From the NCBI GenBank assembly GCA_031389865.1, contig JANMSY010000409.1, positions 1-50,466 on the forward strand: a stretch of DNA of 50,466 nt, written 5' to 3'. The notes beneath the pieces are model-generated. The model was not told where the DNA came from and did not search any database. It worked only from the letters and a program-made list of their open reading frames with translations. Positions 11,517-48,853 of this stretch are shown in pieces. Each line of letters opens with the position of its first letter. The stretch's first letter is position 1. The position numbers and the translations under genes were made by a program. The DNA comes from Anaerolineales bacterium (GTDB lineage Bacteria > Chloroflexota > Anaerolineae > Anaerolineales > Villigracilaceae).

Positions 11517-11528
11517 GGAGTGGACCGA

Positions 11529-19273: not shown

Positions 19274-19350
19274 GTAACAAATCGATTAAAATCAAAATAA
19301 TCGATATGTGACACAATCAACGATTTTTTATTCAAATGGAGGTAGTAACA

Positions 19351-25114: not shown

Positions 25115-26287
25115 ATGATCCTGGTTTTATTTTGGGGCTCGATATTTCTGATAGTGTATACATACGTGATCTTTCCTGTTCTGATCCTTCTTCGAGGACT
25201 GATTTGGCCGCGACCCTATAAAAGTGAGGAGATCATCCCTCTACCTTTGATTAGTGTGATTATTGCTGCCTATAATGAAGAAAAAGCAATTGGGGAAAAG
25301 CTGGAAAATATTTTGTCACTGGATTATCCGCGAGATCGATTGGAGGTATTGATTGCTTCAGATGGGTCGACGGATGGCACGGACGCAATCATACAAGGTT
25401 ACGAAGGACGTGGAATAAAGCTGTTGTCTCTGCCCCGGCAGGGCAAAGCTGCAGCCCTTAACACCGCGGTCGCTGCTTCCAAAGGCGAGATTCTGGTGTT
25501 TTCTGACGCGAACAGCATATACAAAGCCGATGCTCTGCGTGCTCTCGTCAGGCCTTTTGCTGACCCAGGGATAGGTGGCGTCGCTGGCAACCAATGTTAC
25601 GTGAAAAAAAATGGCGCAAGTTTTGTTGGTGCAGGCGAGCGTAGTTACTGGGATTTTGATAGAATCATGAAACAGTTTGAAAGCAGGGCAGGCAACACCA
25701 TTTCTGCAACAGGAGCAATTTACGCAATCCGCCGTTCGTTGTTTCAGGATGTTTTGGAAGGTGTGACCGATGATTTTTTTACTTCCACCAGCGTCATTGC
25801 ACAGGGCTACCGACTGGTTTTTGCAGCAGATGCAGTCGCCTACGAACATCCTGCGGTGAAAAGCAGTATGGAATTCGGGCGGAAAGTGCGAGTCATTACC
25901 CGTGGCTTAAGAGCAGTCTTTGTTGCCCGGCGCCAGTTGCTCAATCCCTTCCGCTACGGATTTTATGCGATCCAGCTTTTTTCTCACAAAGTCTTGAGAC
26001 GCATTATTGTTTACCCTCTTTTGCTTTTGTTACTTGTGACTCCGCTACTATGGGAAAACGCTCTATTTTATAAATTGCTGTTGGTTGGACAGGTGGCATT
26101 TTATAGTCTCGGTCTGGTGGGGCTGCTATTGGAAGGAAATCACTTCGGGCGGCTGAAAATATTCACCATTCCCTTCTACTTTTGCATGGTCAACGCGGCA
26201 GTGTTGGTAGCCACGATAAAAATAATGCGGGGCCAGCAGATCAAACGCTGGGAGCCCCAGCGCGAAGCAGAAACCCTGAAGTCATGA
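25115..26287 (+). CDS. Glycosyltransferase family 2, membrane-bound
   Basis: IIAAYNEE, SDGSTD, GKAAALN, FSDAN, TDDF and C-terminal TM segments. Confidence 0.93.
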   Translation: MILVLFWGSIFLIVYTYVIFPVLILLRGLIWPRPYKSEEIIPLPLISVIIAAYNEEKAIGEKLENILSLDYPRDRLEVLIASDGSTDGTDAIIQGYEGRGIKLLSLPRQGKAAALNTAVAASKGEILVFSDANSIYKADALRALVRPFADPGIGGVAGNQCYVKKNGASFVGAGERSYWDFDRIMKQFESRAGNTISATGAIYAIRRSLFQDVLEGVTDDFFTSTSVIAQGYRLVFAADAVAYEHPAVKSSMEFGRKVRVITRGLRAVFVARRQLLNPFRYGFYAIQLFSHKVLRRIIVYPLLLLLLVTPLLWENALFYKLLLVGQVAFYSLGLVGLLLEGNHFGRLKIFTIPFYFCMVNAAVLVATIKIMRGQQIKRWEPQREAETLKS

Positions 26288-26329: not shown

Positions 26330-27898
26330 ATGATCTCAGGCAGTACAAAAAACCATTCCATATCGAAATATCTAAAATTAGCCAAGATAATGATTATTAT
26401 AAATTCCAATATCAATAGTACCAGGCACACAGGATATTCCCTGTTTGTAAAGTTTTTTATCTGTTTCACCTTTATTGTCGGGCTTTCAAGTTGCACAACA
26501 CCGACTGTGGAAAGTGCCCCTACTGCCAGCCCGACACAAACCCGTGTGGAAGCAGAACCCACTCAAACGCCTGAACAATTGTCGCATACGACAGGAACTT
26601 CGAGAGGCTATCTGACCACCCCACAGGAATTGACGGCCATCGCAAAAAAGGCTGAACAGGGTATAGAGCCGTACCAGAGTGCCGTAAATGATGCAATCCA
26701 ATGGGCAGATAAGGAATGGAAATATGAATTCAAAGCCCATGAAAACTGTTCCAGCGCGGATAGGCCTGCCTGGAACGACAATGGTGGAGGAACTCCAATA
26801 TTGTATGCCAAGGCACTGGCGTATCATCTCACCGGAGATGTCCGATACGCGGAAGAGGTAAAAGGCATCCTCGAACGTATTATGACGGAGGTTGAGAGGA
26901 TTGACGATGATAACCAGCAATGCCGGCTGGTTTTTGGATGGGGTACACCGGAGCTGGTCGCTTCAGCAGACTTGATCGAAGATCATTGGTGGAACCAAAC
27001 CTGTACGGGTCCGACCGGTACCCAATATGCAGACACACAAATAGGAACCGGAAATTGTAAGCAGCTTTTCCAGAATTGGCTTGCCAAAAATCCATATTAT
27101 GTTGTATCGTATTCTGCCGAAAACGGTAAAAGCAATTGGGGAGCGGCTGCCACTAATACAATCGCCTATATCGCTGATTACCTGTGGGATCGCCCAGAGA
27201 TCATACTGGTTCACCGAACCCCCCCGCAAAGAAACGATGGCAAAGATCTAATGATGACGCCTGCGGAAGCCTATGCTTATGCAAATCAGCTGGCACTTGA
27301 CCGAATGAACGGATATGGCGTCGAGTCTGGCAGCAGTACTTCGTGTGATTACCTCAGTGGGAGCCAGCAAAGCAGCCAATGGCCGCCGGTCAAATCACAG
27401 ATCAGTGAACTGGGCATAATACCGGAAGATGCCCGACGTGAGCAGGACTGTAATATCCCCGTTTACAATGGCGAATACCAAAATTATCCTCAGATCCATT
27501 TGGGAAACAACATCCAGCAGTGTGAACTGATGCTGCGCCGTGGCGACGCCTCTTGTTACGACAATATAGACAACTCGGATATCCCTGATTACACATTCAT
27601 TGGACCTGATGGGATATCCAGGACGACTCACCTGTATCCCGGTAGAGGCTCCATCGAACGGGCAATTAAAGCCATCATTGTGGATTCAAATACAGAATGG
27701 CGCCACGACTCAGCGCTGGAAGTCGCCCTTCGATATTATTACAGTCATCGCACACTGCCAGGATTCGAACAATGGGCTGCGGAATTAAACAGTCGGCCTC
27801 ATGACTGCAGCCAGGACATTTGTTTTGGTACCCTGACCCACGGATTTTCGATCGAGGACGAATCCCCGGCATTGCCTCCAACCGTCCCACCCCCCTAA
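26330..27898 (+). CDS. Putative lipoprotein, alginate-lyase-like alpha/alpha-toroid polysaccharide lyase
   Basis: Lipobox LSSC, Thr/Pro linker, ALAYHLTGD.RYA, SNWG. True start may be 26390 or later. Confidence 0.6.
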   Translation: MISGSTKNHSISKYLKLAKIMIIINSNINSTRHTGYSLFVKFFICFTFIVGLSSCTTPTVESAPTASPTQTRVEAEPTQTPEQLSHTTGTSRGYLTTPQELTAIAKKAEQGIEPYQSAVNDAIQWADKEWKYEFKAHENCSSADRPAWNDNGGGTPILYAKALAYHLTGDVRYAEEVKGILERIMTEVERIDDDNQQCRLVFGWGTPELVASADLIEDHWWNQTCTGPTGTQYADTQIGTGNCKQLFQNWLAKNPYYVVSYSAENGKSNWGAAATNTIAYIADYLWDRPEIILVHRTPPQRNDGKDLMMTPAEAYAYANQLALDRMNGYGVESGSSTSCDYLSGSQQSSQWPPVKSQISELGIIPEDARREQDCNIPVYNGEYQNYPQIHLGNNIQQCELMLRRGDASCYDNIDNSDIPDYTFIGPDGISRTTHLYPGRGSIERAIKAIIVDSNTEWRHDSALEVALRYYYSHRTLPGFEQWAAELNSRPHDCSQDICFGTLTHGFSIEDESPALPPTVPPP

Positions 27899-27976: not shown

Positions 27977-29500
27977 ATGTCACAAACTGAAATTGTTCTC
28001 CCGGGCCCCTTTAAAAATCGATTCTCTGCCATCACAGTTCTGACCATCATATCCATGGCGTTAGCTATTGCAGTAGGGTTGGCCAGCACTTCAAACCCGT
28101 TTCTGGTTTTGGCGGCGGTCGCCTTTTTTGCCACCGCAGTCCTCTTCAGCCTTCTCAAGTTGCCCAACTTCATCGTCATTCTGGTTACATTCATTATTTA
28201 TACGAACACTTCCGTGGTGATGATCAAATTTCATGGCGTAACACCGATGTTGGGATATGCCTTACCCTTGCTGTTGGTATTTCCATTTCTATGGGAATTG
28301 ATCGTGAACAGACGACCGGTAAAAGTCAACATCGTTTTCTTATTGATGCTGATGTATTTTTCAGTACTGCTCCTGGGGGGCACCTTTTCGAGAAATATCA
28401 CTTTGGCTATGCCAGGCTTGATTAATTACGCCACGGAGGGCCTGGGGTTGTATTTTCTGCTGATCAACACTATTCGAACCCCCAAGATGTTGAAAAATGT
28501 CGTTTGGTCGTTGTTGATTGCTGGAGCACTCATTGGTGGGCTATCCTTATATCAACAGGTTACGGGAACATTTGATAATAACTATTGGGGGTTTGCCCAG
28601 GTAACGGGTCGAGGATTTACCGCGGAAGAGACGCTCCAGGGTGCTGTCATCCAACCCCGGGTATCCGGGCCAATCGGTGAAAAGAATCGATTTGCACAGG
28701 TCATGTTGATGTTGGTTCCAATCGGTTTATTCCTGGCCTGGGGTGAGCAATCCAAGAGATTGCGTTCGCTGGCCTTTCTGCTGACAGGATTGGCATTTGT
28801 TGGCGGTTCTCTGGCTTTTTCCCGAGGAGCGCAAGTGGGGCTGTTGCTTTTGATCGTTATAATGACCTTCATGCGCTATATTAAGATTCGCGAGCTTTTA
28901 ATCATAGTGTTGGGCATCGTCTTGCTTTTAGTTGCCTTTCCACAAAATGCGCTTCGGTTTGGATCTTTGGGAGCTGTTTTTGCAACCGAAGATGAGGGAG
29001 GTTTGAGAAGTGCCGATGGGGCCATTCAGGGTCGTGCTACCGAAATGCTTGCGGCTATGCTTGTCTTCATGGATAACCCCTTTGTTGGTGTAGGCCCTGG
29101 CATGTTTAGTTACGAAATGGCAGAGTATTCAAGGAGGATTGGTCTCAGGAATATTATATCGACTCGAGAGGCCCACAGCCTGTACCCGGGCGTTGCCGCG
29201 GAATCCGGCCTGTTAGGTTTCATCACGCTCATGGGCATATTTTTTTACACACTTAATGGTCTCGCCCAAGCCAGAAAATACTGGCTGGCAAGGAATAACA
29301 CCCAACTGGCAAACTTATCCACAGGATTCTTCCTGGCGATCATCAGCTACATGACCACAGGCATATTCCTGCATTTTGCATATATCCGTTACTTCTGGTT
29401 GATCATTGCGTTGTCAGTCGTGGTGAGCGGGTTTAGAGAATCAGATCTGGCAGACGAGCTGGAAGCAGTTGATGAACAATCAGGTAGTTCAAGAGGTTAA
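27977..29500 (+). CDS. O-antigen ligase / Wzy-type polymerase family protein
   Basis: RVSGPIGEKN, FSRGA, PFVGVGPGMF, AHSLY..AESGLLG and many TM segments. Confidence 0.85.
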   Translation: MSQTEIVLPGPFKNRFSAITVLTIISMALAIAVGLASTSNPFLVLAAVAFFATAVLFSLLKLPNFIVILVTFIIYTNTSVVMIKFHGVTPMLGYALPLLLVFPFLWELIVNRRPVKVNIVFLLMLMYFSVLLLGGTFSRNITLAMPGLINYATEGLGLYFLLINTIRTPKMLKNVVWSLLIAGALIGGLSLYQQVTGTFDNNYWGFAQVTGRGFTAEETLQGAVIQPRVSGPIGEKNRFAQVMLMLVPIGLFLAWGEQSKRLRSLAFLLTGLAFVGGSLAFSRGAQVGLLLLIVIMTFMRYIKIRELLIIVLGIVLLLVAFPQNALRFGSLGAVFATEDEGGLRSADGAIQGRATEMLAAMLVFMDNPFVGVGPGMFSYEMAEYSRRIGLRNIISTREAHSLYPGVAAESGLLGFITLMGIFFYTLNGLAQARKYWLARNNTQLANLSTGFFLAIISYMTTGIFLHFAYIRYFWLIIALSVVVSGFRESDLADELEAVDEQSGSSRG

Positions 29501-30326
29501 CGATTTGAACCTTCCGCCAGTCATCTCGAAGATATGTTATGCAATTATGCTTTTGCCATTGCAGGCAAAGCAAACAACTCTTGCTCGATCTGAATCTACC
29601 CTGTACCAGTACAAATCCAGATACAAGCGGACTATTTCAGTGGTCCGTTTGGTCGATCGTGTGATTCCAAGAGCGTCAGACAGATTATCCCGTTTGATGT
29701 ATAAGAATAATCATTTCCCCTGGTCAGCGGTTGACATCGACCTGGCAGCTTTTGGGTCAGGTTCCGCAGTTTTTAAGGTGAATGGGCAGGGTGATGATAA
29801 AGCTCTTCGTATTTACCGCAGGTCTCTGGGTAAATCACTACCCGGGGTATTGGAAATAGCCAGATATTATAAAAGGAACTATGAGACAGTACATTCCTGG
29901 TACGGCGGTTCCGCGGGTTTTGTGCTTCCGATGGATTTTCTGGTTCTGTATGGACTGCCGTTTTCCAACCCCGTTGCGGCCTCCTTGCAGCCTTATATCC
30001 ACGGACTTCAACAGGATCCGTTCGAGGATTTTTCCGAGGATGAGCTGATACGGCTGCTGCAAAGGAATGAACGAGTATCTGAACAATTCATCTACTTTGC
30101 CCGGCAGACCATTAGCCAATGGGAGGGACAGAAAAGATGCTTCGATTTACTAGGCAACCAAAACTTAATGCTGGTGAATCAAGGAGGAAATTACAGGTTG
30201 TGTATCGCAGATGTTGGGATTTTCGATCTCGATGTCATAGCGAAAAAACATCCTCAAAAAATGGAGAAAATTAAGCAACGCATGGATCGGTTGGTTTGTC
30301 TTTCCGAATTGGCAAAGCAAATCTAG
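29472..30326 (+). CDS. Hypothetical protein, possible atypical kinase fold
   Basis: FGSGSAVFK Gly-rich loop, DLLGNQNLM and IADVG resemble the catalytic and metal-binding loops. Confidence 0.45.
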   Translation: MNNQVVQEVNDLNLPPVISKICYAIMLLPLQAKQTTLARSESTLYQYKSRYKRTISVVRLVDRVIPRASDRLSRLMYKNNHFPWSAVDIDLAAFGSGSAVFKVNGQGDDKALRIYRRSLGKSLPGVLEIARYYKRNYETVHSWYGGSAGFVLPMDFLVLYGLPFSNPVAASLQPYIHGLQQDPFEDFSEDELIRLLQRNERVSEQFIYFARQTISQWEGQKRCFDLLGNQNLMLVNQGGNYRLCIADVGIFDLDVIAKKHPQKMEKIKQRMDRLVCLSELAKQI

Positions 30327-30422: not shown

Positions 30423-31184
30423 ATGGCACTAGAAAAGATCTATCAGGTAGAACGGGCCAAGTGGGATGCATTGGCGGCAGAAGGTCTGAATTCGTTGAAG
30501 GTACTACGACAGGATGAAGACTTCTACACCTATGCAAAGCGAGCGAGTACGATGGTCGGAGTCAACGATTTCTTCGGCGATCTCCGTGGTAAACATGTAC
30601 TGGAATATGGCTGCGGGTTGGGTGAGGTTGCCATGCTTCTAGCGAAAAGTGGCGCACTGGTAACAACTTTTGATTTATCACCAAAGAGCATCCAGACAAG
30701 TCGTCAGAGAGCGAAATTGAATAATGCAGATTGCAATATCCGCTTTGCCGTTGCTGCTGGCGAGAATATCCCCTATGCAAACAACAGCTTTGACTTTGTT
30801 TTCGGGAGGGCGATCCTGCACCATCTAGACGCAGACCTGGGCTGGTCAGAAATTAGCCGAGTCCTCAAACCAGGAGGGAAGGCCGTGTTTGTCGAGCCAA
30901 TGGGCATGAATCCTGTTCTAAACTTTGTTCGTGATCATGTCCACTATCCTCACAAACATCCGCGCGGGGCAGATGTTCCTTTATCCTATAATGATATTCA
31001 TAAGTGGGGCAAGGGGTTTCACGAATTCTGGTATCGAGAGATTCAACTCTTCAGCATGCTCGAGCGTGGGTTCGGCTTTGGTAAGAAATTTATCCTTTTT
31101 CGGCAAATTGACGGTTTTCTATTAAAGCATGTGCCGTTTCTGAGGCGTTTCTGTCGTTACGTCGTCATGTACTGTATCAAATAA
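30423..31184 (+). CDS. Class I SAM-dependent methyltransferase
   Basis: VLEYGCGLG, SFDFV, ILHH, RVLKPGG. Confidence 0.92.
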   Translation: MALEKIYQVERAKWDALAAEGLNSLKVLRQDEDFYTYAKRASTMVGVNDFFGDLRGKHVLEYGCGLGEVAMLLAKSGALVTTFDLSPKSIQTSRQRAKLNNADCNIRFAVAAGENIPYANNSFDFVFGRAILHHLDADLGWSEISRVLKPGGKAVFVEPMGMNPVLNFVRDHVHYPHKHPRGADVPLSYNDIHKWGKGFHEFWYREIQLFSMLERGFGFGKKFILFRQIDGFLLKHVPFLRRFCRYVVMYCIK

Positions 31185-31241: not shown

Positions 31242-32366
31242 TTGCGCACTGAAACAACGGATTTTGATCTTCACGGAATAGTGGGTATACGCCTGCTCAA
31301 CGCCACGCAAGGCGATATCGCGGCCGTGACAAGGCAGCTTGGGCCTATCCAGGCTCCTCTTTCCAGGACTCCCGATATCGTGATAAATTTTGTGGACCAA
31401 ATCGCTTTCTCATCTCCCGTTCGCTACCTCGGCGTGGATGATGTGGGGTTTACAGACGATGCGTTCTTGGTGTTTCGCGGGAAACAAAAGGCGCGCGTGA
31501 AGGCGCAAATCCCTTTCGACCAGATTGGAAGCCATCAATGCCAGATCATTTGTGAAAGTGGTCTGCCAGCCGTACCGCTGTTGATGCCCATTCTTAATCT
31601 GACAGTACTGAGCCGGGGTGCCCTCCCGTTGCATGCATCGGCATTTAATTACAAGGGAAAAGGAATATTGATCACTGGATGGGCAAAAGGGGGCAAAACT
31701 GAGATGTTACTGGCTTTTGCAGCCCACGGCGCTGAATATGTTGGAGATGAGTGGGTCTATATCAGTGAGGATGGGCAGTGCATGTTTGGGATCCCGGAGC
31801 CGATCCGGGTCTGGTACTGGCATTTGCAGGATATGCCTCGTTATCAAGCGATGGTCGATCGCAGTGACCTTGTTCGACTGCAAGCCCTTAACCTGTTCGT
31901 AAATTTTCTGGAGTGGATGGAGTCCCTTGGATCAGGGCGCGGCTCTGCACCATTTCGGTTCATTAGGCGAATTATAGCGATCGTAAAACAACAGTTATAT
32001 GTACAGCTGCCACCCCGGAAATTGTTTGGACAGACGGCGAAAGGACTGACCGGAAGTCCGGAGAAAGTATTTTTTGTCGGCAGTCATGCTGATCCGAATG
32101 TGACAGTGCAACCCATGGACCCGCAAGAGATTGCAGGGCGAATGGTTTTTTCATTGCAGGAAGAACGCAAGGATTTTATGTCTTATTACTTGAAATACCG
32201 ATTTGCTTTTCCCAAACAGTCAAATTCACTTATCAGTCAGGCGGAGGAGGTACAGCGCAGCATACTTCTGAAAGTATTGGCAGGCAAGGATACCTATGCT
32301 GCGTACCACCCATACCCGGTCTCGATCCCCGCCTTGTTTGACGTGGTCCATCCATATTGTGCCTAG
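31242..32366 (+). CDS. HPr-kinase-like P-loop protein
   Basis: PLHASA, GWAKGGKT, YVGDEWV. TTG start with ggag RBS. Confidence 0.65.
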   Translation: MRTETTDFDLHGIVGIRLLNATQGDIAAVTRQLGPIQAPLSRTPDIVINFVDQIAFSSPVRYLGVDDVGFTDDAFLVFRGKQKARVKAQIPFDQIGSHQCQIICESGLPAVPLLMPILNLTVLSRGALPLHASAFNYKGKGILITGWAKGGKTEMLLAFAAHGAEYVGDEWVYISEDGQCMFGIPEPIRVWYWHLQDMPRYQAMVDRSDLVRLQALNLFVNFLEWMESLGSGRGSAPFRFIRRIIAIVKQQLYVQLPPRKLFGQTAKGLTGSPEKVFFVGSHADPNVTVQPMDPQEIAGRMVFSLQEERKDFMSYYLKYRFAFPKQSNSLISQAEEVQRSILLKVLAGKDTYAAYHPYPVSIPALFDVVHPYCA

Positions 32367-32376
32367 GGGCTTACAA

Positions 32377-33084
32377 ATGTCAAAAATGTATACTGTAGCG
32401 TTAATTGGTCCAGATGGAGCTGGAAAGTCCACCATTGGCCACAAACTTGAGACGATTTCACCGTTACCCATGAAGTACATATACATGGGCGTGAACCTTG
32501 ATTCCAGCAATATGGTGCTGCCTACCACTCGTTTGCTCCTTGAATACAAGCGCTATCATGGCCAGCGTCCAGATATAGCCACCAGGCCACGCGAATACTA
32601 CCAATCGCGCGTCCGTCCCAAGAGTATGTCCAAACGCTTTGTGGCAGGCCTGCGAGCCACTTTGCGATTTGTGAATCTCACCGCTGAAGAATGGTTCCGT
32701 CAAATCATTGTTTGGTATTACACCCTGCGGGGATATTCCGTAATCCTCGACCGACATTTTTACTTCGATTATTACGCTCACGACGTGGTAAACGATGATC
32801 CCAAGCGCTCCCTACACAGCCGGATGCATGGATTCATGCTGAAAAACCTGTACCCGAAACCGGATTATGTAATCTTCCTGGATGCACCGACTGAGGTACT
32901 CTTTGCCCGTAAACCCGAAGGCACCATAGAGGCACGTGAGATCAGGCGACAGGAATATCTTAGGCTCAGGGACGCGGTAAAGTGTTGGGATGTTGTAGAT
33001 GTTTCACAACCGATGGATGAAGTCGTAAATGAGGTTGCGGAACTGATCGTAAAGTTTCACTGTACTAAAAACGGTGGGAAGTAG
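32377..33084 (+). CDS. Thymidylate-kinase-like P-loop kinase
   Basis: GPDGAGKST, ILDRHF, PKPD.VIFLDAP..RK. ATG at 32377 (ORF track starts at 32296). Confidence 0.75.
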   Translation: MSKMYTVALIGPDGAGKSTIGHKLETISPLPMKYIYMGVNLDSSNMVLPTTRLLLEYKRYHGQRPDIATRPREYYQSRVRPKSMSKRFVAGLRATLRFVNLTAEEWFRQIIVWYYTLRGYSVILDRHFYFDYYAHDVVNDDPKRSLHSRMHGFMLKNLYPKPDYVIFLDAPTEVLFARKPEGTIEAREIRRQEYLRLRDAVKCWDVVDVSQPMDEVVNEVAELIVKFHCTKNGGK

Positions 33085-34125
33085 GTGGAACCGGTGCTTA
33101 GAATGATAAAACAGCTGGTGCCAATCGTTGCAAATAGTACAGCCTTTGAGAGATTTGTTGCGCTGTTGGAACACTCCGCTGGAGAGCGCGCAAACCTGCT
33201 GAGAGTGCTGACTTATCATCGCGTGGATGAGCCGCATGCACATCCATGGCTTGATCCAGGGCTGATCAGTGCATCTCCACAAGCTTTTGAAATGCAAATG
33301 AAGTATCTGGCAGCCAGGCATCAGCCTGTATCGGCGTCTGATGTGCAAAAGGCGTTTGAAGGTCAATATGCCCTGCCGCCGCGTGCAGTACTGGTAACCT
33401 TCGATGATGCATATTGTGATTTTGAAAAACACGCCTGGTCCATCTTAAAGCAATACCAGATCCCTGCCATCCTCTTTGTTGCTACCGCGTTCCCTGACCA
33501 CCCGGAGCGAACGTTTTGGTGGGACAGGTTATTCAATGCGATTCATACCACTGTGGCTGATGAGTTGAATACATCGATGGGGCGTCTCCCTATCTCCACG
33601 GCGCTGCAGCGTAATCAGGCATACAAGTCTATTAAGAATTATCTGAAGACGCTGCCTCACGACAAAGCCATGGCAGACGTGGATCGAATATGCAGTGAAC
33701 TTGGCGTTCCCACGCATGATAATAGTGTGCTGGGTTGGGATTCGTTGCGCAGATTGGTAAGCAACGGTCTTACGCTGGGTGCGCACACTCGAAACCATCC
33801 AATCATGAATTGCATCACGCCTGACGAACTGCAGAAAGAAGTAAGTGATTCGCTGCACGATTTGCGTCGCGAGATCGGTTTGGTTCCACAGACTTTTGCG
33901 TACCCGAGCGGGATCCATAATAATGAAGCCGTCAAAACCGTGGAACGTGCTGGCTTCAAACTGGCCTTTACCACGGAGCGAGGCATCAACGAAGTGGGTC
34001 ATGCCGATCGGTTGCGATTGCAACGGATTAATGTTAGTCCACGTACCACATTACCAATCTTGCGGGCACAATTGCTGTCGTGGTCTGCACCTCTCCATTC
34101 CCTGGGTAACAAACTTTTTAGCTAA
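33085..34125 (+). CDS. Polysaccharide deacetylase (CE4/NodB)
   Basis: LTYHRV, VTFDDAY, GAHTRNHP, FAYPSG. Confidence 0.92.
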   Translation: MEPVLRMIKQLVPIVANSTAFERFVALLEHSAGERANLLRVLTYHRVDEPHAHPWLDPGLISASPQAFEMQMKYLAARHQPVSASDVQKAFEGQYALPPRAVLVTFDDAYCDFEKHAWSILKQYQIPAILFVATAFPDHPERTFWWDRLFNAIHTTVADELNTSMGRLPISTALQRNQAYKSIKNYLKTLPHDKAMADVDRICSELGVPTHDNSVLGWDSLRRLVSNGLTLGAHTRNHPIMNCITPDELQKEVSDSLHDLRREIGLVPQTFAYPSGIHNNEAVKTVERAGFKLAFTTERGINEVGHADRLRLQRINVSPRTTLPILRAQLLSWSAPLHSLGNKLFS

Positions 34126-34483: not shown

Positions 34484-35431
34484 ATGAAAATTCTTATTGC
34501 TAGCAAAATCTATGCAGACTCAATCGAGAAACTCAAAGAGGATCACGAGGTGGTTTGCGCTTTCGGTGCAGACAAAGAAACCTTGAAATCACTGATCTGG
34601 GATTGTGATGTTCTGGTCTTCCGAAGCGGCGTGGAAATCTCTGCGGATGTAATGGCGGCAGCTCCGTCTTTGAAACTGCTTCTCCGGGCAGGCTCTGGAG
34701 TTGATAACCTTGATCTGGATTATATAAGTCAGCGGGGCCTGCGGCTGATCCGGATCCCCGGACCGGGTGCAAAGGCTGTGGCTGAGCTATCCTTTGCGAT
34801 GATGCTGGCGCTGGCACGCAACCTGCTGGAAGCCGACCGGCTGACCCGTGGTGGGCGCTGGGCAAAAAATGAACTCACCGGTTATCTGCTTACCGGCAAA
34901 GTGCTTGGCGTTCTCGGGGCCGGAAACATTGGTTCGCGCGTAGGAAGCATGGGCGTAGCCTGGGGCATGGATGTGCTGGCATGTGTCGCACATCCCTCTC
35001 CAGATAGAGCAAAACAATTCGCGCAGATGGGAATTCAGATGACCACTGATGAAGATGTGATTGCCAGGGCGGATTTTCTGAGCGTGCATGTCCCGCTGAC
35101 CACTTCGAATCGCAATTTAATCAACAAAGAAGCGTTAGCGACCATGAGGCCGGGCGCATACCTGGTCAATCTGGCGCGTGGAGGTGTCGTTGATGAGGCA
35201 GCGCTCTTCGATGCTTTAACCGAAGGTCGGTTGGGTGGTGCAGCCCTGGACGTTCACCAGGCAGAGGGCGAAGGCAAGATATCTCCCCTGGCTGAATTAA
35301 AGAACGTTATTCTGACTCCACACATCGGAGCCAGCACGTTCGACTCACAGCGGGAGATTGGCGAAATTATCATTGAAACTGTAAAGAGTTTCAAGACAGA
35401 GCGATCATCTACCCTACTAGAGACATCGTAG
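34484..35431 (+). CDS. D-2-hydroxyacid (phosphoglycerate-dehydrogenase-like) dehydrogenase, candidate phosphonopyruvate reductase
   Basis: RAGSGVDN, AVAE, GAGNIG, HVPLT, NLARGG, ALDV, TPHIGAST. No ACT domain. Adjacent to pepM. Confidence 0.85.
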   Translation: MKILIASKIYADSIEKLKEDHEVVCAFGADKETLKSLIWDCDVLVFRSGVEISADVMAAAPSLKLLLRAGSGVDNLDLDYISQRGLRLIRIPGPGAKAVAELSFAMMLALARNLLEADRLTRGGRWAKNELTGYLLTGKVLGVLGAGNIGSRVGSMGVAWGMDVLACVAHPSPDRAKQFAQMGIQMTTDEDVIARADFLSVHVPLTTSNRNLINKEALATMRPGAYLVNLARGGVVDEAALFDALTEGRLGGAALDVHQAEGEGKISPLAELKNVILTPHIGASTFDSQREIGEIIIETVKSFKTERSSTLLETS

Positions 35432-35480
35432 GCGTGTCAATTAATTTCAACCGTGAATTAGCCAGATAATGGAGAGAAAA

Positions 35481-36380
35481 ATGTTAAAGAAAACCACACA
35501 ATTGAAGCAAATGCTGCAATCCGACCAGCTGGAAGTCATTATGGAAGCCCACGATGGGCTTAGCGCGAAAATTGTTGAGCAGGCCGGATTCAAGGGAATA
35601 TGGGGAAGCGGGCTGACGATCTCCGCTTCGATGGGGGTTCGCGATAACAATGAAGCAAGCTGGACCCAGGTGCTTGAAGTGATGGAGTTCATGAGCGACG
35701 CGACCACCATCCCTATTTTGTTGGATGCGGATACGGGTTATGGCAATTTCAATAACGTCCGCAGATTGGTGCGCAAACTTGAACAGCGTAACGTAGCCGG
35801 CATGTGTATTGAGGACAAGCTGTTTCCCAAAACCAATTCTTTCATTAACAGTGAGCAACAACCACTGGCAGACATCGAAGAATTTGCCGGAAAAATCAAG
35901 GCTGCAAAAGACACACAACAGGATCCTGATTTTTGTGTGGTCGCCAGGGTCGAGTCCCTGATCGCAGGGTGGGAGTTGGATGAAGCCCTCAAGAGAGCCG
36001 AGGCTTACTCTCTTGCCGGTGCCGATGCAATTCTTATGCACAGTAAGCTTAAAACCGCCGATCAAATCCTGGAATTTATGCGGGAATGGCAGAATAGATG
36101 TCCAGTTGTGATTGTCCCAACCACCTATTACAATACGCCAACTTCTGTTTATGAGCAGGCAGGCATCAGCCTGGTTATTTGGGCCAATCATCTGCTTCGA
36201 TCCAGTATTAAGGCCATGCAGCAAACGGCTGCACAGATTTATGAGGAGCGATCCATCAGCTCCATAGAAGGTCAGGTTGTTCCGGTGAAAGAGATCTTTC
36301 GTCTGCAGGACGCCGCAGAGTTGGAAGAGGCTGAAAAACAATATTTTCCTAAAGTTGGTGTTGAGGGATCGCAGGTCTAG
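35481..36380 (+). CDS. pepM: Phosphoenolpyruvate phosphomutase
   Basis: Diagnostic EDKxxxxxNS motif ([10 protein letters not shown]), plus [24 protein letters not shown] at 35481 after ggag. Confidence 0.95.
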
Positions 36381-36466
36381 GCATAGCACGTTCCAGCGCT
36401 GAGTTCCGAGTCCCCAGTCTACCAGCATGATCCAGGGCTCTGCTGCATTCATCTAACTTTCAAGGT

Positions 36467-37672
36467 TTGGAGAGGTCAAGATTGCACGTAAATACACACA
36501 GCGAACTACCCTATGCTTTTGTAATCGGCTTGGATTGCATAACAGGACTACAGACCGCACGCATCCTGGCTGGGCATGATATTCCAATTATTGCGTTAGC
36601 CAAGGATCCCAACCATTTCTGTTGTCAGACACGGGTATGTGAGAAAATCATTCGGGCAAATACAGCTGGTGAAGAGTTTATCGAGGTGTTGGAGGCCCTG
36701 GGGCCGCAGCTGAGCCAAAAAGCAGTCCTCTACCCATGCACTGATATGAGCGTATTGACCATTTCCCGTCATCGTCACCGCCTTGCTGCCTGGTATCACG
36801 TGGTACTCCCCGAGCCCGAAGTGGTTGAGATGCTGATGGATAAGGTAAGCTTCTATGCCTATGCCCAGGAAAAGGGATTGCCCATACCAAAGACATTTCT
36901 CTTAAAAAATAGAAATGATGCTGAAGCAGCAGCAAATGAGCTTACCTTTCCCTGCATTATGAAACCCCCAATGAAAACACCAACCTGGGAAAAACATACC
37001 CGGGCCAAGGTGTACAAGGTAACCAATCCAGAGGAATTTCTTGCGCTATACGATCAATGCTCAGGCTGGGCTGATCTGCTGATGGTTCAGGAATGGATTG
37101 AGGGAAATGACGCCACCCTTTATTCCTGCAATTGCTATTTCAATGCCGGCTCTGAGCCGATGGTTACTTTCGTGGCCCGTAAGCTCCGGCAGTGGCCTCC
37201 TCAGACGGGAACGAGCTGCCTGGGAGAAGAGTGTCGCAATGACTTCGTTTTGGAGGAGTCGATTCGCTTATTCCGAAGTGTCAACTACCGTGGGTTGGGT
37301 TATGTGGAAATGAAACGCGACGAACGCACGGGGAAGCACTTCATCATCGAACCCAACATCGGCAGGCCAACAGGCAGGTCAGCCATCGCAGAGGCAGGAG
37401 GCGTTGAACTGCTTTACACCAAGTACTGCGATGTCCTGGGTTTGCCGCTGCCTGCGAATCGTGAGCAGAAATATAAAGGCGTGAAATGGATCTATCTGCA
37501 GCATGACATCCCGTCCGCGTTGCATTACTGGAAGCGGGGAGAACTCACGCTTCGAGAATGGTGGCGTTCGGTTCGCGGTGCCAGACGGGATGCTGTTTTT
37601 TCGTGGACTGACCCAGCCCCGTTTTGGTATTCCTTATGGAAGGTTGCCAAACAGCTGGTAAATCACAAATAA
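36467..37672 (+). CDS. ATP-grasp carboxylate-amine ligase (D-aspartate-ligase-like)
   Basis: DK, PIPKT, FPCIMKP, VQEWIEG, RKLRQWP, VEMKRD..IEPNIGR. Start uncertain (TTG 36467 or 36482). Confidence 0.85.
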   Translation: MERSRLHVNTHSELPYAFVIGLDCITGLQTARILAGHDIPIIALAKDPNHFCCQTRVCEKIIRANTAGEEFIEVLEALGPQLSQKAVLYPCTDMSVLTISRHRHRLAAWYHVVLPEPEVVEMLMDKVSFYAYAQEKGLPIPKTFLLKNRNDAEAAANELTFPCIMKPPMKTPTWEKHTRAKVYKVTNPEEFLALYDQCSGWADLLMVQEWIEGNDATLYSCNCYFNAGSEPMVTFVARKLRQWPPQTGTSCLGEECRNDFVLEESIRLFRSVNYRGLGYVEMKRDERTGKHFIIEPNIGRPTGRSAIAEAGGVELLYTKYCDVLGLPLPANREQKYKGVKWIYLQHDIPSALHYWKRGELTLREWWRSVRGARRDAVFSWTDPAPFWYSLWKVAKQLVNHK

Positions 37673-37720: not shown

Positions 37721-38575
37721 ATGAAAGAAATCAGTAATTACGAACAGCTTAAAACATTTTTTCTGGAGTGTCGAGGCGATCGAAGCAAATTGCCGGACGC
37801 CTCAATTGCCATTCCGGTCAATGCCGAGGGCGATTTCGAAACTGTTTTGGGAGTGCTTGGTGATATTGCAAAGTACACAGGTGCCCATACTTTCGAGGTC
37901 ATCCTTGCGATTAATAACTATCCCGAGGAGAACGTGCCGGCAGAAATTGAACTCTTTCGATCCATGGGAGTTCTTGTCGAAGCAACACCGAGCGTGCGTC
38001 GTCCTGAGGAAGCTGTGTGTTTTTCTGCCCGCATGACAGGCGTTCGTGGTGCCAACACTGACTACTTAATACTTTTCGATGCTGATTGTCGAATCCCTAA
38101 TTCGACGGCGTTGATCGACTGGTACATTGATCGTCAGCACGACGGTGTGGGACTGGCATACACACACGTAACATACTATGATTTAAAAAAGCTTCTATCG
38201 ATTCGGGTGCGGATGATTGCGCACCATGGAGCACGATGGGTAAAAAGAGAATTACTCAGTATTCCCACGACGCGCGGCGGTAACTACGCTGCGAATCGGA
38301 CAAGGATGCTGGAATATTACGACCAGAAGCTCCTAAGCGATGATCTCAATGTAGGACCAACATTCAAAGCCAAGGGACTTCGCATAGCTTACTCGGGGAA
38401 ACGACAGCTTATTGTTCTGACCTCCGGGCGCGTGTTTAGCGGTGGATGGCTTAAGCTCATCCGCTACCTGCTATATCGACTGCGCTATAACCTGAAGATG
38501 TTGCCAGTTGGCCCGGATGTCACAAGCCGGTTACAGCGGGGGGATGATAATATCCGTAAGGTGAAAACTCGATGA
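37721..38575 (+). CDS. Glycosyltransferase, GT-A fold (GT2-like)
   Basis: SIAIPVN, DAD DxD motif, GGNYA, SDD, TSGR. Confidence 0.75.
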   Translation: MKEISNYEQLKTFFLECRGDRSKLPDASIAIPVNAEGDFETVLGVLGDIAKYTGAHTFEVILAINNYPEENVPAEIELFRSMGVLVEATPSVRRPEEAVCFSARMTGVRGANTDYLILFDADCRIPNSTALIDWYIDRQHDGVGLAYTHVTYYDLKKLLSIRVRMIAHHGARWVKRELLSIPTTRGGNYAANRTRMLEYYDQKLLSDDLNVGPTFKAKGLRIAYSGKRQLIVLTSGRVFSGGWLKLIRYLLYRLRYNLKMLPVGPDVTSRLQRGDDNIRKVKTR

Positions 38576-38711
38576 AAAACAGTTCATGTTTTAAGGTTAT
38601 TTCCACTATGTCCAAAAAAATAATTTTCATGCAAATCGAGCCGATGCATATGCATCCGCTCCATGGTTGATCGTGATGTTAAAAGATAATTTCGCATTAC
38701 AAGAGACGATA

Positions 38712-39446
38712 ATGTCGGGCTTATGGTTGTTCCCGTACGATACCCGACAGCTACTATTCAAAACTCTATCGCCACGGGCGTACAAGCATTTCCAGGAAAT
38801 GAGAAATATAGACACCCAAAAGGGCCGTTCCATTAAGCCGTTTGACGAGCAGAGATCCATATTTGTCCATATCACGAAATGTGCAGGGATTTCGGTCGCC
38901 ACGAGTCTTTTTGGTAATCTGGGTGGTGGACACTTAAGAGTACCGCACTATCAACTAATATTTAGTAAACGTGAATTCGAGGAGTACTTTAAGTTCACAT
39001 TTGTTCGTAATCCATGGGACCGTCTGGTATCAGCATTTCTCTTCTTGAAAAAAGGAGGCGCGAATAAGGCAGACAGGCAGTGGGCACACGAAAATCTTTC
39101 CCGTTTTGCAGATTTCAATGGCTTTGTAACCGGCTGGGTGGGTCGGAAAAATGTCAATAAGTGGAAACACTTTGTGCCTCAGTATAAATTTTTGTGTCAG
39201 CCAGGAAGTCGGACTCCCAGCGTCGATTTCATTGGCTACTTTGAACACCTGAGCGAAGATTTTGCTTATGTCCAAAAAAGGTTGGGGTGTCATTCAAGCC
39301 TGCAGCACTTGAATAAGACTGAAGGAGGCAAGAAGGATTATAGAGAGTATTATACGGAGGCTGCAAGGAAGATTGTGGCTGATGTTTATCAAGAGGATAT
39401 TCATATGTTTGGCTATAACTTCGACAACACTCTTTTGAAGAGGTAA
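38712..39446 (+). CDS. Sulfotransferase family 2 (carbohydrate sulfotransferase)
   Basis: 5'-PSB FVHITKCAGIS, 3'-PB FTFVRNPWDRLVSAF, HFVPQ, DFIGYFE, Y..D..FGY. Confidence 0.9.
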   Translation: MSGLWLFPYDTRQLLFKTLSPRAYKHFQEMRNIDTQKGRSIKPFDEQRSIFVHITKCAGISVATSLFGNLGGGHLRVPHYQLIFSKREFEEYFKFTFVRNPWDRLVSAFLFLKKGGANKADRQWAHENLSRFADFNGFVTGWVGRKNVNKWKHFVPQYKFLCQPGSRTPSVDFIGYFEHLSEDFAYVQKRLGCHSSLQHLNKTEGGKKDYREYYTEAARKIVADVYQEDIHMFGYNFDNTLLKR

Positions 39447-43292: not shown

Positions 43293-44498
43293 GTGAAAAT
43301 ATTGATGATTTCCCCGCAGCCTTTTTTTGAGCCGCGCGGTACTCCCATTAGCGTTTACCAGCGTCTGGAAGGTCTGTCAGCGCTTGGGCATCAGATCGAC
43401 CTCCTTACCTATCATGTTGGCAAGGACGTTGTTATTCCCAATGTTAAGATCCATAGGGTACGCAAAATTGGAGTAATCCAACATGTGCGCATAGGACCCT
43501 CCAGGGCAAAGATACTTCTGGATGTCCTGATCTTTTTCAAAGCAATTCGTATGCTGCTCACAAAACGTTATGATGTGATTCACTCTCATGAGGAGGCTTC
43601 ATTTTTCGGTGTGATCCTTGCCAGGATCTTTCGCACGCGACATCTGTATGACATGCATTCCGTGCTTTCAAAACAGCTGGGCAACTTTGATTTTGGGAAT
43701 AAACCCATCTTTGTTAAGATTTTTGAGAAGCTTGAGAGAATGGTCCTTAAAGCATCGGATGCGGTGATCAATGTGGGCTCCGATCTTGACGAATATGTCA
43801 AATCTGTGGATCCACACATTCAAACAATCACCATTGAAAACATTGCCCTGCATGCATACCAGACCCCCATCCAGCCGGAGGCTTTTACGGAATTGGCACA
43901 GAAATTAAACCTGCATGGCAGAATTCCGATCCTATACACTGGAACGTTTGAGAAGTACCAGGGATTGGACATGGTCCTTGGCTGTTTGGATCAGGTCATA
44001 AAACATTATCCCAATGCAATTTTCATTTTTGTTGGTGCAAAAGTGTATCAGGCCCAGGAATGGACCGAAAAAGCAGCAGGCATGAATCTGGCGGATCACA
44101 CCCTATTTGTGGATGTGGTATCACCCGAAGATTCAATGGTATATCTTGCCTACGCATCCATATTGATTTCACCGCGCCTCAATGGGACCACGGTCCCCCT
44201 AAAAATCTACAGCTATCTACATGCCGGGAAGCCCATCGTGGCAACAAATATCAACGCGCACACCCAGGTACTAACTCCGGATACGGCGATGCTGGTGGAA
44301 CCTAATAAGGATGCATTTGCCCAGGGCATTCTCAAGCTTATCGCGGATCCGCAACTCGGTGAATATTTGGGTGAAAATGCCCATCGCCTTGCCCAGGAAA
44401 AGTTCAACTACCAAAACTACATGATCAAGGTGAATAAGATATACAAGACACTTGAAACCGGCATGGCTGTAAAACTTCCTTCCGTTCCACAGGAATGA
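43293..44498 (+). CDS. Glycosyltransferase family 4
   Basis: YTGTFEKYQGLD, PLKIYSYL.AGKPIVAT. GTG start after ggagg. Confidence 0.9.
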   Translation: MKILMISPQPFFEPRGTPISVYQRLEGLSALGHQIDLLTYHVGKDVVIPNVKIHRVRKIGVIQHVRIGPSRAKILLDVLIFFKAIRMLLTKRYDVIHSHEEASFFGVILARIFRTRHLYDMHSVLSKQLGNFDFGNKPIFVKIFEKLERMVLKASDAVINVGSDLDEYVKSVDPHIQTITIENIALHAYQTPIQPEAFTELAQKLNLHGRIPILYTGTFEKYQGLDMVLGCLDQVIKHYPNAIFIFVGAKVYQAQEWTEKAAGMNLADHTLFVDVVSPEDSMVYLAYASILISPRLNGTTVPLKIYSYLHAGKPIVATNINAHTQVLTPDTAMLVEPNKDAFAQGILKLIADPQLGEYLGENAHRLAQEKFNYQNYMIKVNKIYKTLETGMAVKLPSVPQE

Positions 44499-44502
44499 TC
44501 GT

Positions 44503-46374
44503 ATGTGCGGGATATGTGGTGTTGTTTCATTTCAACCGGGACATCCAACTGACAGGTACATGCTTGAACAGATGAATCAAACCCTGCATCATCGGGGGCC
44601 GGATGATGACGGTTACTATCAGGATACCCAGGCATCGTTGGCCATGCGCCGCCTGAGCATTATTGACCTGCATACGGGGCAACAACCCATCTCGAATGAG
44701 ACTGGCGACATCTGGGTGGTGTACAACGGGGAGATTTACAACTTTCAACCGATCCGCGCCGAACTACAACAACGCGGGCACGTATTCAAAACCCAGTCCG
44801 ATACCGAGATCATCGTCCATGCCTATGAAGAATATGGGGATGAATGTGTTAAGCGGTTCAATGGGATGTTTGCACTGGCACTATGGGATTCGCGCAGGTG
44901 CAGGCTTTTGATCGCACGTGACCACCTGGGGATCAAGCCTTTATATTACTGGGCAGGCCAGGACAAGCTGATATTTGGTTCCGAGTTAAAAGCCCTGGTC
45001 GTCCACCCGGATGTGCCTCGGCAGATCAATCTCACAGCCGTGGATCTGTTCCTGTCACTGGAATATATCCCGGCCCCGCTGACAATCTATAGGAATATCT
45101 TTAAGCTCCAAGCGGGTCATATTTTGGTACTGGAGGATGGGCATCTACAACTATCCCAGTTTTGGGACGTGCCGCGTCAACCTGTAGGGGGGGATGAGGA
45201 TGAATGCGCGGAAACACTTGCCGGCTTGATCAAGGAAGCGGTCCAGATGCGCATGATCAGCGATGTGCCGCTGGGCGCATTCCTGAGCGGCGGAATTGAC
45301 TCGAGTGCGGTGGTCGGGTACATGAGCCAGGCCAGTTCAAAGCCAGTCCAAACCTTCTCCATTGGCTTTGCGGATGATACGTATAACGAACTGCCATATG
45401 CGGCGGCAGTTGCGAAGCATTTTCAAACGGACCATCATTTTGAAGTGTTGAACCCTGATATTGCGAGTCTGGCAGAGCAGCTCGTTCAACATCACGATGA
45501 GCCGTTCGCTGACACATCTATTTTTCCCACCTATCTCGTTTCGAAGCTTGCGAGACAACATGTAAAAGTGGCGCTTTCCGGTGATGGCGGCGACGAATTA
45601 TTTGCAGGCTATGATACGTATCTTGCTGAACGAATGAATTTTTATTATGGGAAGCTTCCTGGTGCGCTGCGTAGAAATATACTGCCAGCTTTTGCGAACC
45701 TGCTTCCTCCTCAACCTGCGAAGAAGGGAATGGTCAACAAGGTGAAACGAATGATTGAAGGGGGAGCACTGGACCCCGCTCTCCAGCATACGCGCTGGAT
45801 GATCTTCATGGATGAGCGCGAGAAAAAGAGTTTATACAAATCGGACCTGCAGGACACCCTGCAGGATGGATCAACGGCCGGGTTCTTTGGAGAACACTTT
45901 CAGCAGGTAGATTCATTTGACGTGCTTGCCCAACAGCAATATGTGGACATGAAGACCTATTTGCCGGATGATATCCTGACCAAAGTGGATCGCATGAGCA
46001 TGGCTGTCTCTTTGGAGGCGCGTGTGCCTCTGCTCGATCATCGTATCGCGGAATTTGGGTTGAACCTGCCGCCGCACATGAAATTAAATGGGTCGCGCAC
46101 AAAGATTATTTTGCGAAAGGCGCTGCGTCGCGTCGTCCCGGATCTGGTGCTTGAAAAGCCGAAGCAGGGATTTAGCATCCCGATGAAACACTGGTTGTGC
46201 AGCTCGCTCAAGCCCATGATGCAGGACCTGCTCTCGAATGACACGGTACGCCAGCGCGGCTATTTCAAGCCTGAGGTGGTTTCCACATGGATGCGCGAAC
46301 ACCTCGATGGGAGGGTCAATCACGCTCACCGTTTGTGGTCCCTAATGGCACTTGAATTATGGCATCAGGCCTGA
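44503..46374 (+). CDS. asnB: Asparagine synthase (glutamine-hydrolysing) family amidotransferase, polysaccharide-associated
   Basis: MCGICG, HRGPD, NGEIYN, LSGGIDSS, SGDGGDELFAGY, KVDRMSM..EARVP. Confidence 0.92.
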   Translation: MCGICGVVSFQPGHPTDRYMLEQMNQTLHHRGPDDDGYYQDTQASLAMRRLSIIDLHTGQQPISNETGDIWVVYNGEIYNFQPIRAELQQRGHVFKTQSDTEIIVHAYEEYGDECVKRFNGMFALALWDSRRCRLLIARDHLGIKPLYYWAGQDKLIFGSELKALVVHPDVPRQINLTAVDLFLSLEYIPAPLTIYRNIFKLQAGHILVLEDGHLQLSQFWDVPRQPVGGDEDECAETLAGLIKEAVQMRMISDVPLGAFLSGGIDSSAVVGYMSQASSKPVQTFSIGFADDTYNELPYAAAVAKHFQTDHHFEVLNPDIASLAEQLVQHHDEPFADTSIFPTYLVSKLARQHVKVALSGDGGDELFAGYDTYLAERMNFYYGKLPGALRRNILPAFANLLPPQPAKKGMVNKVKRMIEGGALDPALQHTRWMIFMDEREKKSLYKSDLQDTLQDGSTAGFFGEHFQQVDSFDVLAQQQYVDMKTYLPDDILTKVDRMSMAVSLEARVPLLDHRIAEFGLNLPPHMKLNGSRTKIILRKALRRVVPDLVLEKPKQGFSIPMKHWLCSSLKPMMQDLLSNDTVRQRGYFKPEVVSTWMREHLDGRVNHAHRLWSLMALELWHQA

Positions 46375-46388
46375 TCGGTTCCTCATTT

Positions 46389-47156
46389 ATGAATAAACAA
46401 GATTTGACAGCCAACATCACCTCCTATTGGGACCATCACATCCATGACCTGGCCATTGCCACACACCCGGTGGGCACGCCGGGTTTCTTCCGCCAGCTGG
46501 ATGAGTATCGCTATGACAAGTTGAACTACCTTCCACGCCTGGTGAATTTCGCCGCGTATCAGGGTAAAAAACTGTTGGAAGTGGGATGTGGCGCGGGCAT
46601 AGACCTGGTACGTTTTGCGCGTGCTGAAGCAGATGTCACAGGAATCGACCTGTCACAGACTTCCATCGATCTTGCGCGCAAAAATATTGAGCAAAACGGG
46701 CTAAAGGCGGATCTTTGCCTAATGAACGGCGAGCGCATGGACTTTCCCGATAACACCTTTGATGTTGTATACGCTCATGGAGTTTTGCAATACACCGCAG
46801 ATAGCGGGAAAATGATGGCCGAAATTCATCGTGTGTTGAAACCGGGCGGCGAAGCAATCCTGATGGTATACAATAGAAATTCATGGCTGAACCTGATGAG
46901 ACAGGTGACCAGGGTTCCGTTGGAACATGAAGACGCCCCTGTGCTAAAGAAATTTTCAATGGAGGAATTGAAGCAATTGCTCAAACCCTTCAAGAGCCAT
47001 CGGATTATCCCCGAACGCTTTCCAGTGAAGACCAAGCTGCATTCCGGTTGGAAAGCCCGTCTCTTCAATGACGTGTTTGTCGGAACATTCAACCTGATGC
47101 CCAAAGCATGGGTCCGCTCGTTTGGCTGGCATCTCATGGCATTTGCGGTGAAATAG
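46389..47156 (+). CDS. Class I SAM-dependent methyltransferase
   Basis: LLEVGCGAG, TFDVV, HRVLKPGG. Confidence 0.9.
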   Translation: MNKQDLTANITSYWDHHIHDLAIATHPVGTPGFFRQLDEYRYDKLNYLPRLVNFAAYQGKKLLEVGCGAGIDLVRFARAEADVTGIDLSQTSIDLARKNIEQNGLKADLCLMNGERMDFPDNTFDVVYAHGVLQYTADSGKMMAEIHRVLKPGGEAILMVYNRNSWLNLMRQVTRVPLEHEDAPVLKKFSMEELKQLLKPFKSHRIIPERFPVKTKLHSGWKARLFNDVFVGTFNLMPKAWVRSFGWHLMAFAVK

Positions 47157-47158
47157 AT

Positions 47159-48850: not shown

Positions 48851-48853
48851 TTT

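Follow-up and report, generated by a model that had tools for sequence, protein, structure and literature searches.

A candidate phosphonolactate pathway with a predicted ATP-grasp attachment step in polysaccharide operons of Anaerolineae

The 50,466-nt contig JANMSY010000409.1, analysed here over its entire length as the window (assembly GCA_031389865.1, Anaerolineales bacterium, Villigracilaceae), carries three intact plus-strand open reading frames (ORFs) that encode a SerA-like D-2-hydroxyacid dehydrogenase (34484-35431), a phosphoenolpyruvate (PEP) mutase (PepM; 35469-36380, likely start 35484) and an ATP-grasp protein (36467-37672, likely start 36482, giving 396 residues). This triplet, situated near the end of a Wzx/Wzy operon of plus-strand genes some 23 kb long (16430-39446), appears to represent a conserved and apparently uncharacterised phosphonate pathway of polysaccharide operons, of which the first two predicted steps are known and the third, attachment, would be new. 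Of the nearest named relatives, 97% belong to Chloroflexota and 80-85% to Anaerolineales. The analysis covered the genome (722 contigs, 90.8% complete), 82 genomes of the same genus, and samples of 400 other genomes from the class and 400 other genomes from the phylum. ATP-grasp homologues of at least 55% identity were termed close, and the 37 loci bearing one were compared; since these loci (L labels; genomes have G labels) are related by descent, they are not independent.

On the evidence of its sequence the middle gene is a canonical PEP mutase, as the earlier note had claimed. The protein scored 407.1 bits against TIGR02320 (cut-off 319.55) and 250 against the phosphonopyruvate hydrolase model, was closer to the solved PEP mutase 1m1b (447 bits) than to phosphonopyruvate hydrolase 2dua (225 bits), and contains the ten-residue motif EDKx5NS. 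A second PepM lineage, 38-39% identical and below the TIGR02320 cut-off, in which Asn replaces Lys to give EDNxFPKRNS, occupies the equivalent slot in L028 (7695-8648), L030 (7710-8600), L050 (3045-4004) and G538 (L105/L106), and was found also in L111; the occurrence of a divergent PepM in the same slot indicates that the slot is conserved, rather than one gene. Surveys filtered by motif would miss this lineage.

The PepM equilibrium favours PEP by more than 500-fold, so a pulling step is needed, and 2-hydroxyacid dehydrogenases are among the enzymes known to provide it (PMC12871164). Profile searches of the window proteins detected no phosphonopyruvate decarboxylase (Ppd), 2-aminoethylphosphonate (AEP) transaminase or PntC, an absence already asserted for the window, and the genome at large gave the same picture: the Ppd, AEP transaminase and LicD models yielded nothing above cut-off in the 90.8% represented, and the Ppd and PntC proteins of relatives returned weak partial BLAST matches only. 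The Ppd query, serving as a positive control, recovered the Ppd of another locus. The one iron-containing alcohol dehydrogenase (Fe-ADH) in the genome (29% identity) is unlinked to the triplet, and Ppd was found in none of five related carriers (four class-sample genomes 92-99% complete, plus the two-contig G538). Among the 37 close-ATP-grasp loci none holds Ppd, PntC or Fe-ADH. Conventional clusters do occur in genus- and order-level relatives, at L019 (G032) and L021 (G049), with a nucleotidyltransferase-fused PepM, Ppd, and Fe-ADH or PntC.

To judge from its phylogeny and distribution, the dehydrogenase is dedicated to the PepM pathway. The 315-residue protein comprises the Pfam domains 2-Hacid_dh and 2-Hacid_dh_C without a C-terminal regulatory domain, scored 286 bits against TIGR01327 (below the cut-off of 454), and was closest to SerA structures, with which its catalytic Arg, Glu and His align. 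It is nevertheless distinct from the SerA of the serine pathway, for which a separate candidate (384 bits versus 284) lies on another contig beside a class V aminotransferase. Tree-building with 35 rows placed the enzyme in a clade of 29 (support 100/99), 27 members of which adjoin PepM; of the other two, L043 has pepM on another short contig and one lies on a 1.3-kb contig. This clade was missing (best match no more than 41% identity) from all five genomes possessing a close ATP-grasp but no PepM, and its presence or absence together with PepM supports the role of coupling enzyme previously assigned to it.

As most rows of that tree were found by way of the ATP-grasp protein, its count is biased towards the triplet, a bias from which counts starting from PepM are free. 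On the latter basis PepM was present in eight of the 82 genomes of the genus, seven of which have a close ATP-grasp gene adjoining it or at most 1.5 kb away, while the eighth contains a conventional cluster of cytidylyltransferase-PepM, Ppd and Fe-ADH; such recurrence implies that the gene order is not due to chance. Within the class sample a PepM-like gene was found in five of 400 genomes, with the dehydrogenase directly upstream in four (one the unpublished G389, another a repeat of L033). In G063 the dehydrogenase lies in the operon, but pepM is found on a contig of its own, 3.6 kb long. A scan of metagenome contigs starting from the dehydrogenase gave three loci, one of them the relative on a 1.3-kb contig. 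The arrangement in the window, a PF02826 dehydrogenase beside ppm with no ppd, is that classed as VlpB-type in a published inventory (PMC8942020); VlpB itself was not identified among the PDB or plasmid matches, the best plasmid match (41.9% identity) being SerA-like. Phosphonopyruvate is very probably the substrate of the window dehydrogenase, and phosphonolactate its product.

The ATP-grasp protein gave a model with a mean predicted local distance difference test score (pLDDT) of 91, for which fold searches returned generic matches only (best 2pn1, Z 26.3, root-mean-square deviation (rmsd) 2.8 over 289 aligned residues at 16% identity). Its homologues are carboxylate-amine ligases or D-aspartate ligases by the machine naming of their sources, Atlas searches led to generic carboligase clusters, and the nucleotide- and metal-binding residues K126, K166, E281, E295, N297 and R300 are conserved. 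The tree, a quick one with long outgroup branches, from which duplicates (L016, L018, L097), the window's own entries (L004/L082), the frameshifted L048 and matches shorter than 200 residues were left out, placed it in a clade of 36 rows (SH-aLRT 98), 28 of them PepM-linked; as the inner nodes are weak, it does not establish gain as against loss of pepM. At loop position 250 Ser was present in all 28 PepM-linked rows and Gly in six of the eight PepM-less rows, and three later PepM-linked cases had Ser in two and Gly in one (the unpublished G389). As a marker of phosphonate specificity Ser250 is thus no more than a lead, in view of that exception and because the six Gly rows may represent a single clade (the constrained tree being 4.1 log units better, with an approximately unbiased test p-AU of 0.55).

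Close relatives of this protein were found in one of 400 genomes of the phylum sample, and plasmids yielded none (best approximately 30%). At L046 (9977-11215) a close ATP-grasp gene (61%) is isolated next to a PGA_cap (CapA) gene; the genome, a single contig, lacks PepM, and its polysaccharide operon is far removed and holds a distant ATP-grasp gene. In L036 a distant and a close ATP-grasp gene lie one on each side of deacetylase-dehydrogenase-pepM.

The dehydrogenase and PepM are both present in 27 of the 37 close-ATP-grasp loci, and 25 of these 27 carry a backbone polysaccharide gene, which bears out the polysaccharide context first proposed; 17 have a deacetylase within the DNA available for the locus. 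Triplet-type loci span Chloroflexota, Calditrichota, KSB1, Acidobacteriota, Planctomycetota, Actinomycetota, Gammaproteobacteria and Pelobacter, and one carrier of the complete gene set is on record as a named strain, Candidatus Laterigemmans baculatus JC640 (L039). The backbone (HPrK-like, thymidylate-kinase-like, deacetylase, phosphotransferases, Wzx and Wzy) occurs also where phosphonate genes are lacking: G451, G453 and G334 have a distant ATP-grasp (23-25%) in the equivalent position, G477 and G494 have one of 56-57% directly 3' of the deacetylase with no PepM, and G483 has one of 28% likewise placed with no phosphonate gene. On a similar principle, a Priestia plasmid carries a deacetylase of another family, a glycosyltransferase of family 4 (GT4), an ATP-grasp protein and a phosphotransferase consecutively. 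Judged by gene order, the deacetylase and ATP-grasp gene are thus a constant slot, into which dehydrogenase-pepM is inserted as an exchangeable supply pair. The three-gene cassette of the earlier note accordingly stands as a recurrent triplet, while the functional unit is wider than had been supposed, the deacetylase and ATP-grasp slot belonging to the backbone.

Comparable first steps are known from the valinophos cluster of Streptomyces durhamensis, in which VlpA and VlpB likewise combine PepM, in the absence of Ppd, with a 2-Hacid_dh_C dehydrogenase to yield phosphonolactate (PMC8942020, PMC12871164), VlpB being termed a phosphonopyruvate reductase (PMC11867202). There, however, vlpCDE (ArgC-like, phosphoglycerate kinase and Fe-ADH) serve a reduction to dihydroxypropylphosphonic acid (DHPPA) within a peptide cluster, whereas no genes of these three kinds occur in the window, where the setting is a polysaccharide operon. 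Nor is VlpF the precedent for phosphonolactate activation that it was taken to be, as it esterifies valine onto DHPPA (PMC12723261). Six vlpB clusters, with the vlpABCDE core or some variant, appear in the 2022 inventory; they come from Streptomyces, Tumebacillus and three Proteobacteria, and in the text covered none is presented as a glycan locus. By the same account the valinophos producer was the sole source from which phosphonolactate had been isolated, and FrbC- and VlpB-type neighbourhoods together made up 5.3% of the total (PMC8942020).

The phosphonoglycans bearing AEP or 2-hydroxyethylphosphonate (Ppm-Ppd-AEP transaminase or PhpC, then PntC; Bacteroides fragilis, Stackebrandtia) also have PepM within a surface-polysaccharide locus, but that of the window lacks Ppd, AEP transaminase, Fe-ADH, PntC and LicD. 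In approximately two-thirds of ppm clusters a nucleotidyltransferase lies no more than five genes away (PMC6697681); none was found at the window locus. The D-aspartate ligase AslA/Aslfm, which acts on peptidoglycan precursors (PMC4155827), has its fold and catalytic core in common with the ATP-grasp protein, and an aslA-type gene following a racemase was a distant profile match (probability 98%, 20% identity, 287 columns); it differs in that aligned identity is 17%, the RQWP loop is not shared and the window holds no racemase. Fosfazinomycin clusters, likened here by description, similarly place ATP-grasp and kinase genes (FzmF, FzmK, FzmU) beside pepM and deal with a 2-hydroxy-phosphonate, but require a nucleotidyltransferase and a peptide hydrazide acceptor, neither of which is linked at the window locus. 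A 2026 preprint on that system states that conjugation of phosphonates to carbohydrates had not yet been reconstituted (PMC13622209). Phosphonolactate attached to a polysaccharide was not described in any of the literature searched, which did not extend to the valinophos genome survey of Zhang et al. (2022), where such loci may be listed.

The scheme favoured here would begin with conversion of PEP by the mutase and adjoining dehydrogenase to (R)-phosphonolactate, the (R) configuration being that expected of a D-specific dehydrogenase family. ATP-grasp ligases form acyl-phosphates and amides; the present one would activate the carboxylate of phosphonolactate and link it as an amide to an amino sugar of the repeat unit, unmasked through de-N-acetylation by the adjacent deacetylase. 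Because a deacetylase lies directly beside the ATP-grasp gene in PepM-less relatives, the ATP-grasp protein is read as an N-acyl ligase, with phosphonolactate as donor. No signal or membrane segments were detected by hydrophobicity in the deacetylase or the other enzymes of the route, for which reason attachment is placed in the cytoplasm, before Wzx flips the repeat unit. The product would be a polysaccharide with free phosphonic acid groups, together with sulfate and possibly phosphate in view of the sulfotransferase and kinase genes. That a glycan is the destination of phosphonolactate is considered likely; for the whole chain, including carboxylate activation and a deacetylated sugar as acceptor, the predicted case is closely balanced, and falls slightly short of even. 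Slightly more tentative is the generalisation that, in a widespread family of Wzx/Wzy operons of Chloroflexota, Calditrichota, Acidobacteriota, Planctomycetota and others, deacetylase and ATP-grasp form a plug-in N-acylation slot, the acyl donor of which is swapped as supply genes are gained or lost. With dehydrogenase-pepM in place the slot may yield a third kind of phosphonoglycan, in which N-phosphonolactyl sugars keep a free phosphonic acid and neither Ppd nor nucleotidyl activation is required, and this may be what PepM chiefly serves in Anaerolineae.

Several observations weigh against this scheme. The dehydrogenase-PepM pair is lacking from ten of the 37 close-ATP-grasp loci, and G061, G062, G064, G477 and G494 possess a close ATP-grasp with no PepM at all, so the ligase clade is not exclusive to phosphonates; the candidate specificity residue Ser250 has its PepM-linked exception in G389. 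The deacetylase, present in 17 of the 27 triplet loci, is missing from the long loci L028, L049, L050 and L051, and therefore does not always supply the acceptor; a FemAB/GNAT-like gene replaces it clearly in L049, after the ATP-grasp gene, and faintly in L051. Neither L051 nor L033 showed a backbone polysaccharide gene by the queries used. Precedent also points to phosphorus rather than carbon as a site of activation: FzmF, an ATP-grasp enzyme, and FzmK phosphorylate a 2-hydroxy-phosphonate twice, on phosphorus, before FzmU ligates it (PMC13622209), and D-aspartate ligase, a distant relative, activates the beta-carboxylate, which corresponds to the phosphonate position of phosphonolactate (PMC4155827). 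As FzmF phosphorylates the phosphonate itself, the C-P acid cannot be taken for granted to remain free at the cell surface.

Those precedents underlie an alternative in which the ATP-grasp protein would phosphorylate the phosphonate in FzmF-like fashion, the HPrK/FomB-like or thymidylate-kinase-like protein would add a second phosphate, and the phosphonyl group would pass to a sugar hydroxyl or amine, so that the linkage would be P-O or P-N and the carboxylate would stay free. The HPrK-like gene is present in all five PepM-bearing genomes of the class sample, and matches to the FomB model with E of 0.01 or less (best 3e-5) were obtained for 18 of 23 members. The window protein, however, scored 22.7 bits against FomB model NF000361 (cut-off 400), a weaker match than that to generic HprK-related proteins, and its predicted model resembled 1ii2 (PEP carboxykinase, both domains; Z 15.7, rmsd 4.7, 287 aligned), with HPr kinase in the core. 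Moreover, four of the nine class-sample genomes with the HPrK-like gene lack PepM, including the single-contig G451, and L051 is a triplet without either P-loop gene; as the HPrK-like and thymidylate-kinase-like genes both persist without PepM, the kinases were dropped as a requirement of the phosphonate pathway. A nucleotidyltransferase, absent from the window, exists unlinked elsewhere in the genome as a PF14907 gene followed by a flippase-like ORF (G000:C494:2016-3311, on a 4.6-kb contig). In relatives a second thymidylate-kinase-like gene bears a 250-residue N-terminal fusion (L028:16407-17795, L043:16490-17884, L063, L074, L075), nucleotidyltransferase-like by motif, without a Pfam match and absent from the window's genome; of these loci one is a triplet (L028), three are PepM-less and the other is L043. 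On this balance activation on phosphorus is considered unlikely.

A different destination for phosphonolactate, such as a lipid, a peptide or a small exported molecule, the operon being a frequent landing place, would suit L051, where the triplet genes are accompanied by one for a membrane protein and an ORF faintly resembling GNAT, with no polysaccharide genes nearby, as well as the FemAB/GNAT gene of L049, the 358-base gap (poorly conserved) 5' of the dehydrogenase gene, and the fact that known ATP-grasp genes of phosphonate clusters make peptides (PMC11867202). It accords poorly with the backbone genes of 25 of 27 triplet loci, with a co-directional position in the operon showing no excess of promoters (6 versus 7.6 expected) or terminators (4 versus 6.1 expected) around the triplet and a third-position GC content like that of neighbouring genes, and with the want in the window of a dedicated exporter or peptide ligase pair, and is thus regarded as quite unlikely. 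It is somewhat less probable again that the ATP-grasp protein activates another acid (an amino acid or primary metabolite) and keeps the task of its PepM-less relatives, with phosphonolactate as acceptor through its 2-hydroxyl or attached by some other enzyme; VlpF does activate valine and esterify a phosphonate alcohol (PMC12723261), yet the clade is mostly PepM-linked and keeps its place next to pepM where the operon is absent (L051), and the dehydrogenase-pepM pair has no other transferase as a conserved companion. Least credible, and very improbable, is that the dehydrogenase acts elsewhere, for instance on a phosphorylated sugar-acid, while an enzyme missing from the assembly pulls PepM, or that the product is reduced further to DHPPA. 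Genome completeness of 90.8% and the separate pepM contig of G063 leave some room for this, against which stand the related carriers devoid of Ppd, the lack in the window of the ArgC-like, phosphoglycerate-kinase and Fe-ADH genes, and the lack of Fe-ADH from all 37 loci.

The remainder of the operon, all on the plus strand, is headed by an RfaH/NusG-type antiterminator (16430-16996; Pfam/NCBIfam); a scan for ops-like elements gave nothing beyond chance. A membrane protein with a degenerate GGDEF-like domain (17549-18457), kept in many related operons, lies 5' of the priming polyprenyl glycosylphosphotransferase (18563-19273, PF02397), and is followed by a Wzc-like chain-length/tyrosine kinase protein (19336-20985, Pfam/NCBIfam), a Wzx-type flippase (21052-22638, PF13440/PF01943), a faintly APH-like phosphotransferase (22635-23795, PF01636, E 0.079), GT4 (23822-25111, Pfam/NCBIfam) and family 2 (GT2; 25115-26287, Pfam) glycosyltransferases, a secreted or lipoprotein-like ORF with a hydrophobic stretch and a faint alginate-lyase match (26330-27898, PF05426, E 0.16), and a Wzy_C/O-antigen-ligase-family membrane protein (27977-29500, PF04932). 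Thereafter come an ORF without a family match, kinase-like from motifs only (29469-30326; in 7/33 loci), an S-adenosylmethionine-dependent methyltransferase variable among relatives (30423-31184; 1/33), the HPrK/PEPCK-fold P-loop kinase-like protein (31242-32366), the thymidylate-kinase-like P-loop protein (32296-33084), and the polysaccharide deacetylase of carbohydrate esterase family 4 predicted to free the acceptor amine (33085-34125, PF01522), in which the TFDD and HTxxH motifs are intact by alignment. On the 3' side of the triplet are a GT2-like glycosyltransferase (37721-38575; 3/33) and a sulfotransferase (38667-39446, PF03567).

Seven metatranscriptomes recorded as RNA (two studies) contain a fraction of 0.10-0.44 of the sequence words of the triplet, and contigs from four runs cover it, one spanning dehydrogenase to ATP-grasp (34959-36555); an intergenic control stretch was likewise partly covered in three of the four runs, so this coverage is no proof of transcription. 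Elsewhere in the window, a second plus-strand operon (43293-49666; GT4, an asparagine-synthase-like amidotransferase, two methyltransferases and a GlpD-like FAD oxidoreductase) was not seen adjoining the triplet in relatives, and a sugar catabolism region (137-15845) holds an FGGY kinase, GntR and ROK regulators, a sugar ABC transporter, four isomerase-like TIM barrels, an unannotated 443-residue ORF (5104-6435) and a Gfo/Idh/MocA dehydrogenase whose match to the levoglucosan dehydrogenase model reached 401 bits. Genes handling phosphate or sulfate are present in the relatives L026, L027, L028, L034, L040, L043, L062, L063 and L087, and include phytase-like propellers, CotH kinase, a VTC domain with DUF4956, metallophosphoesterases, sulfatases, sulfotransferases and adenosine 5'-phosphosulfate (APS) kinase; the operon family as a whole suggests heavily anion-decorated glycans.

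The decoration of cell surfaces is regarded as the purpose of most phosphonate capacity in bacteria, and its attachment step is poorly known. The present locus is a candidate for a soluble route of three or four enzymes without decarboxylase or cytidylyltransferase, which may cover some of the one-third of ppm clusters in which a nucleotidyltransferase is absent, and attachment through either a C1 amide or phosphorus would represent a new glycan chemistry. Were the proposed scheme correct, free phosphonic acid groups on a sheath or capsule would probably be phosphatase-proof and metal-binding, a property of relevance to the Anaerolineae of soil and sludge and to the environmental phosphonate pool.

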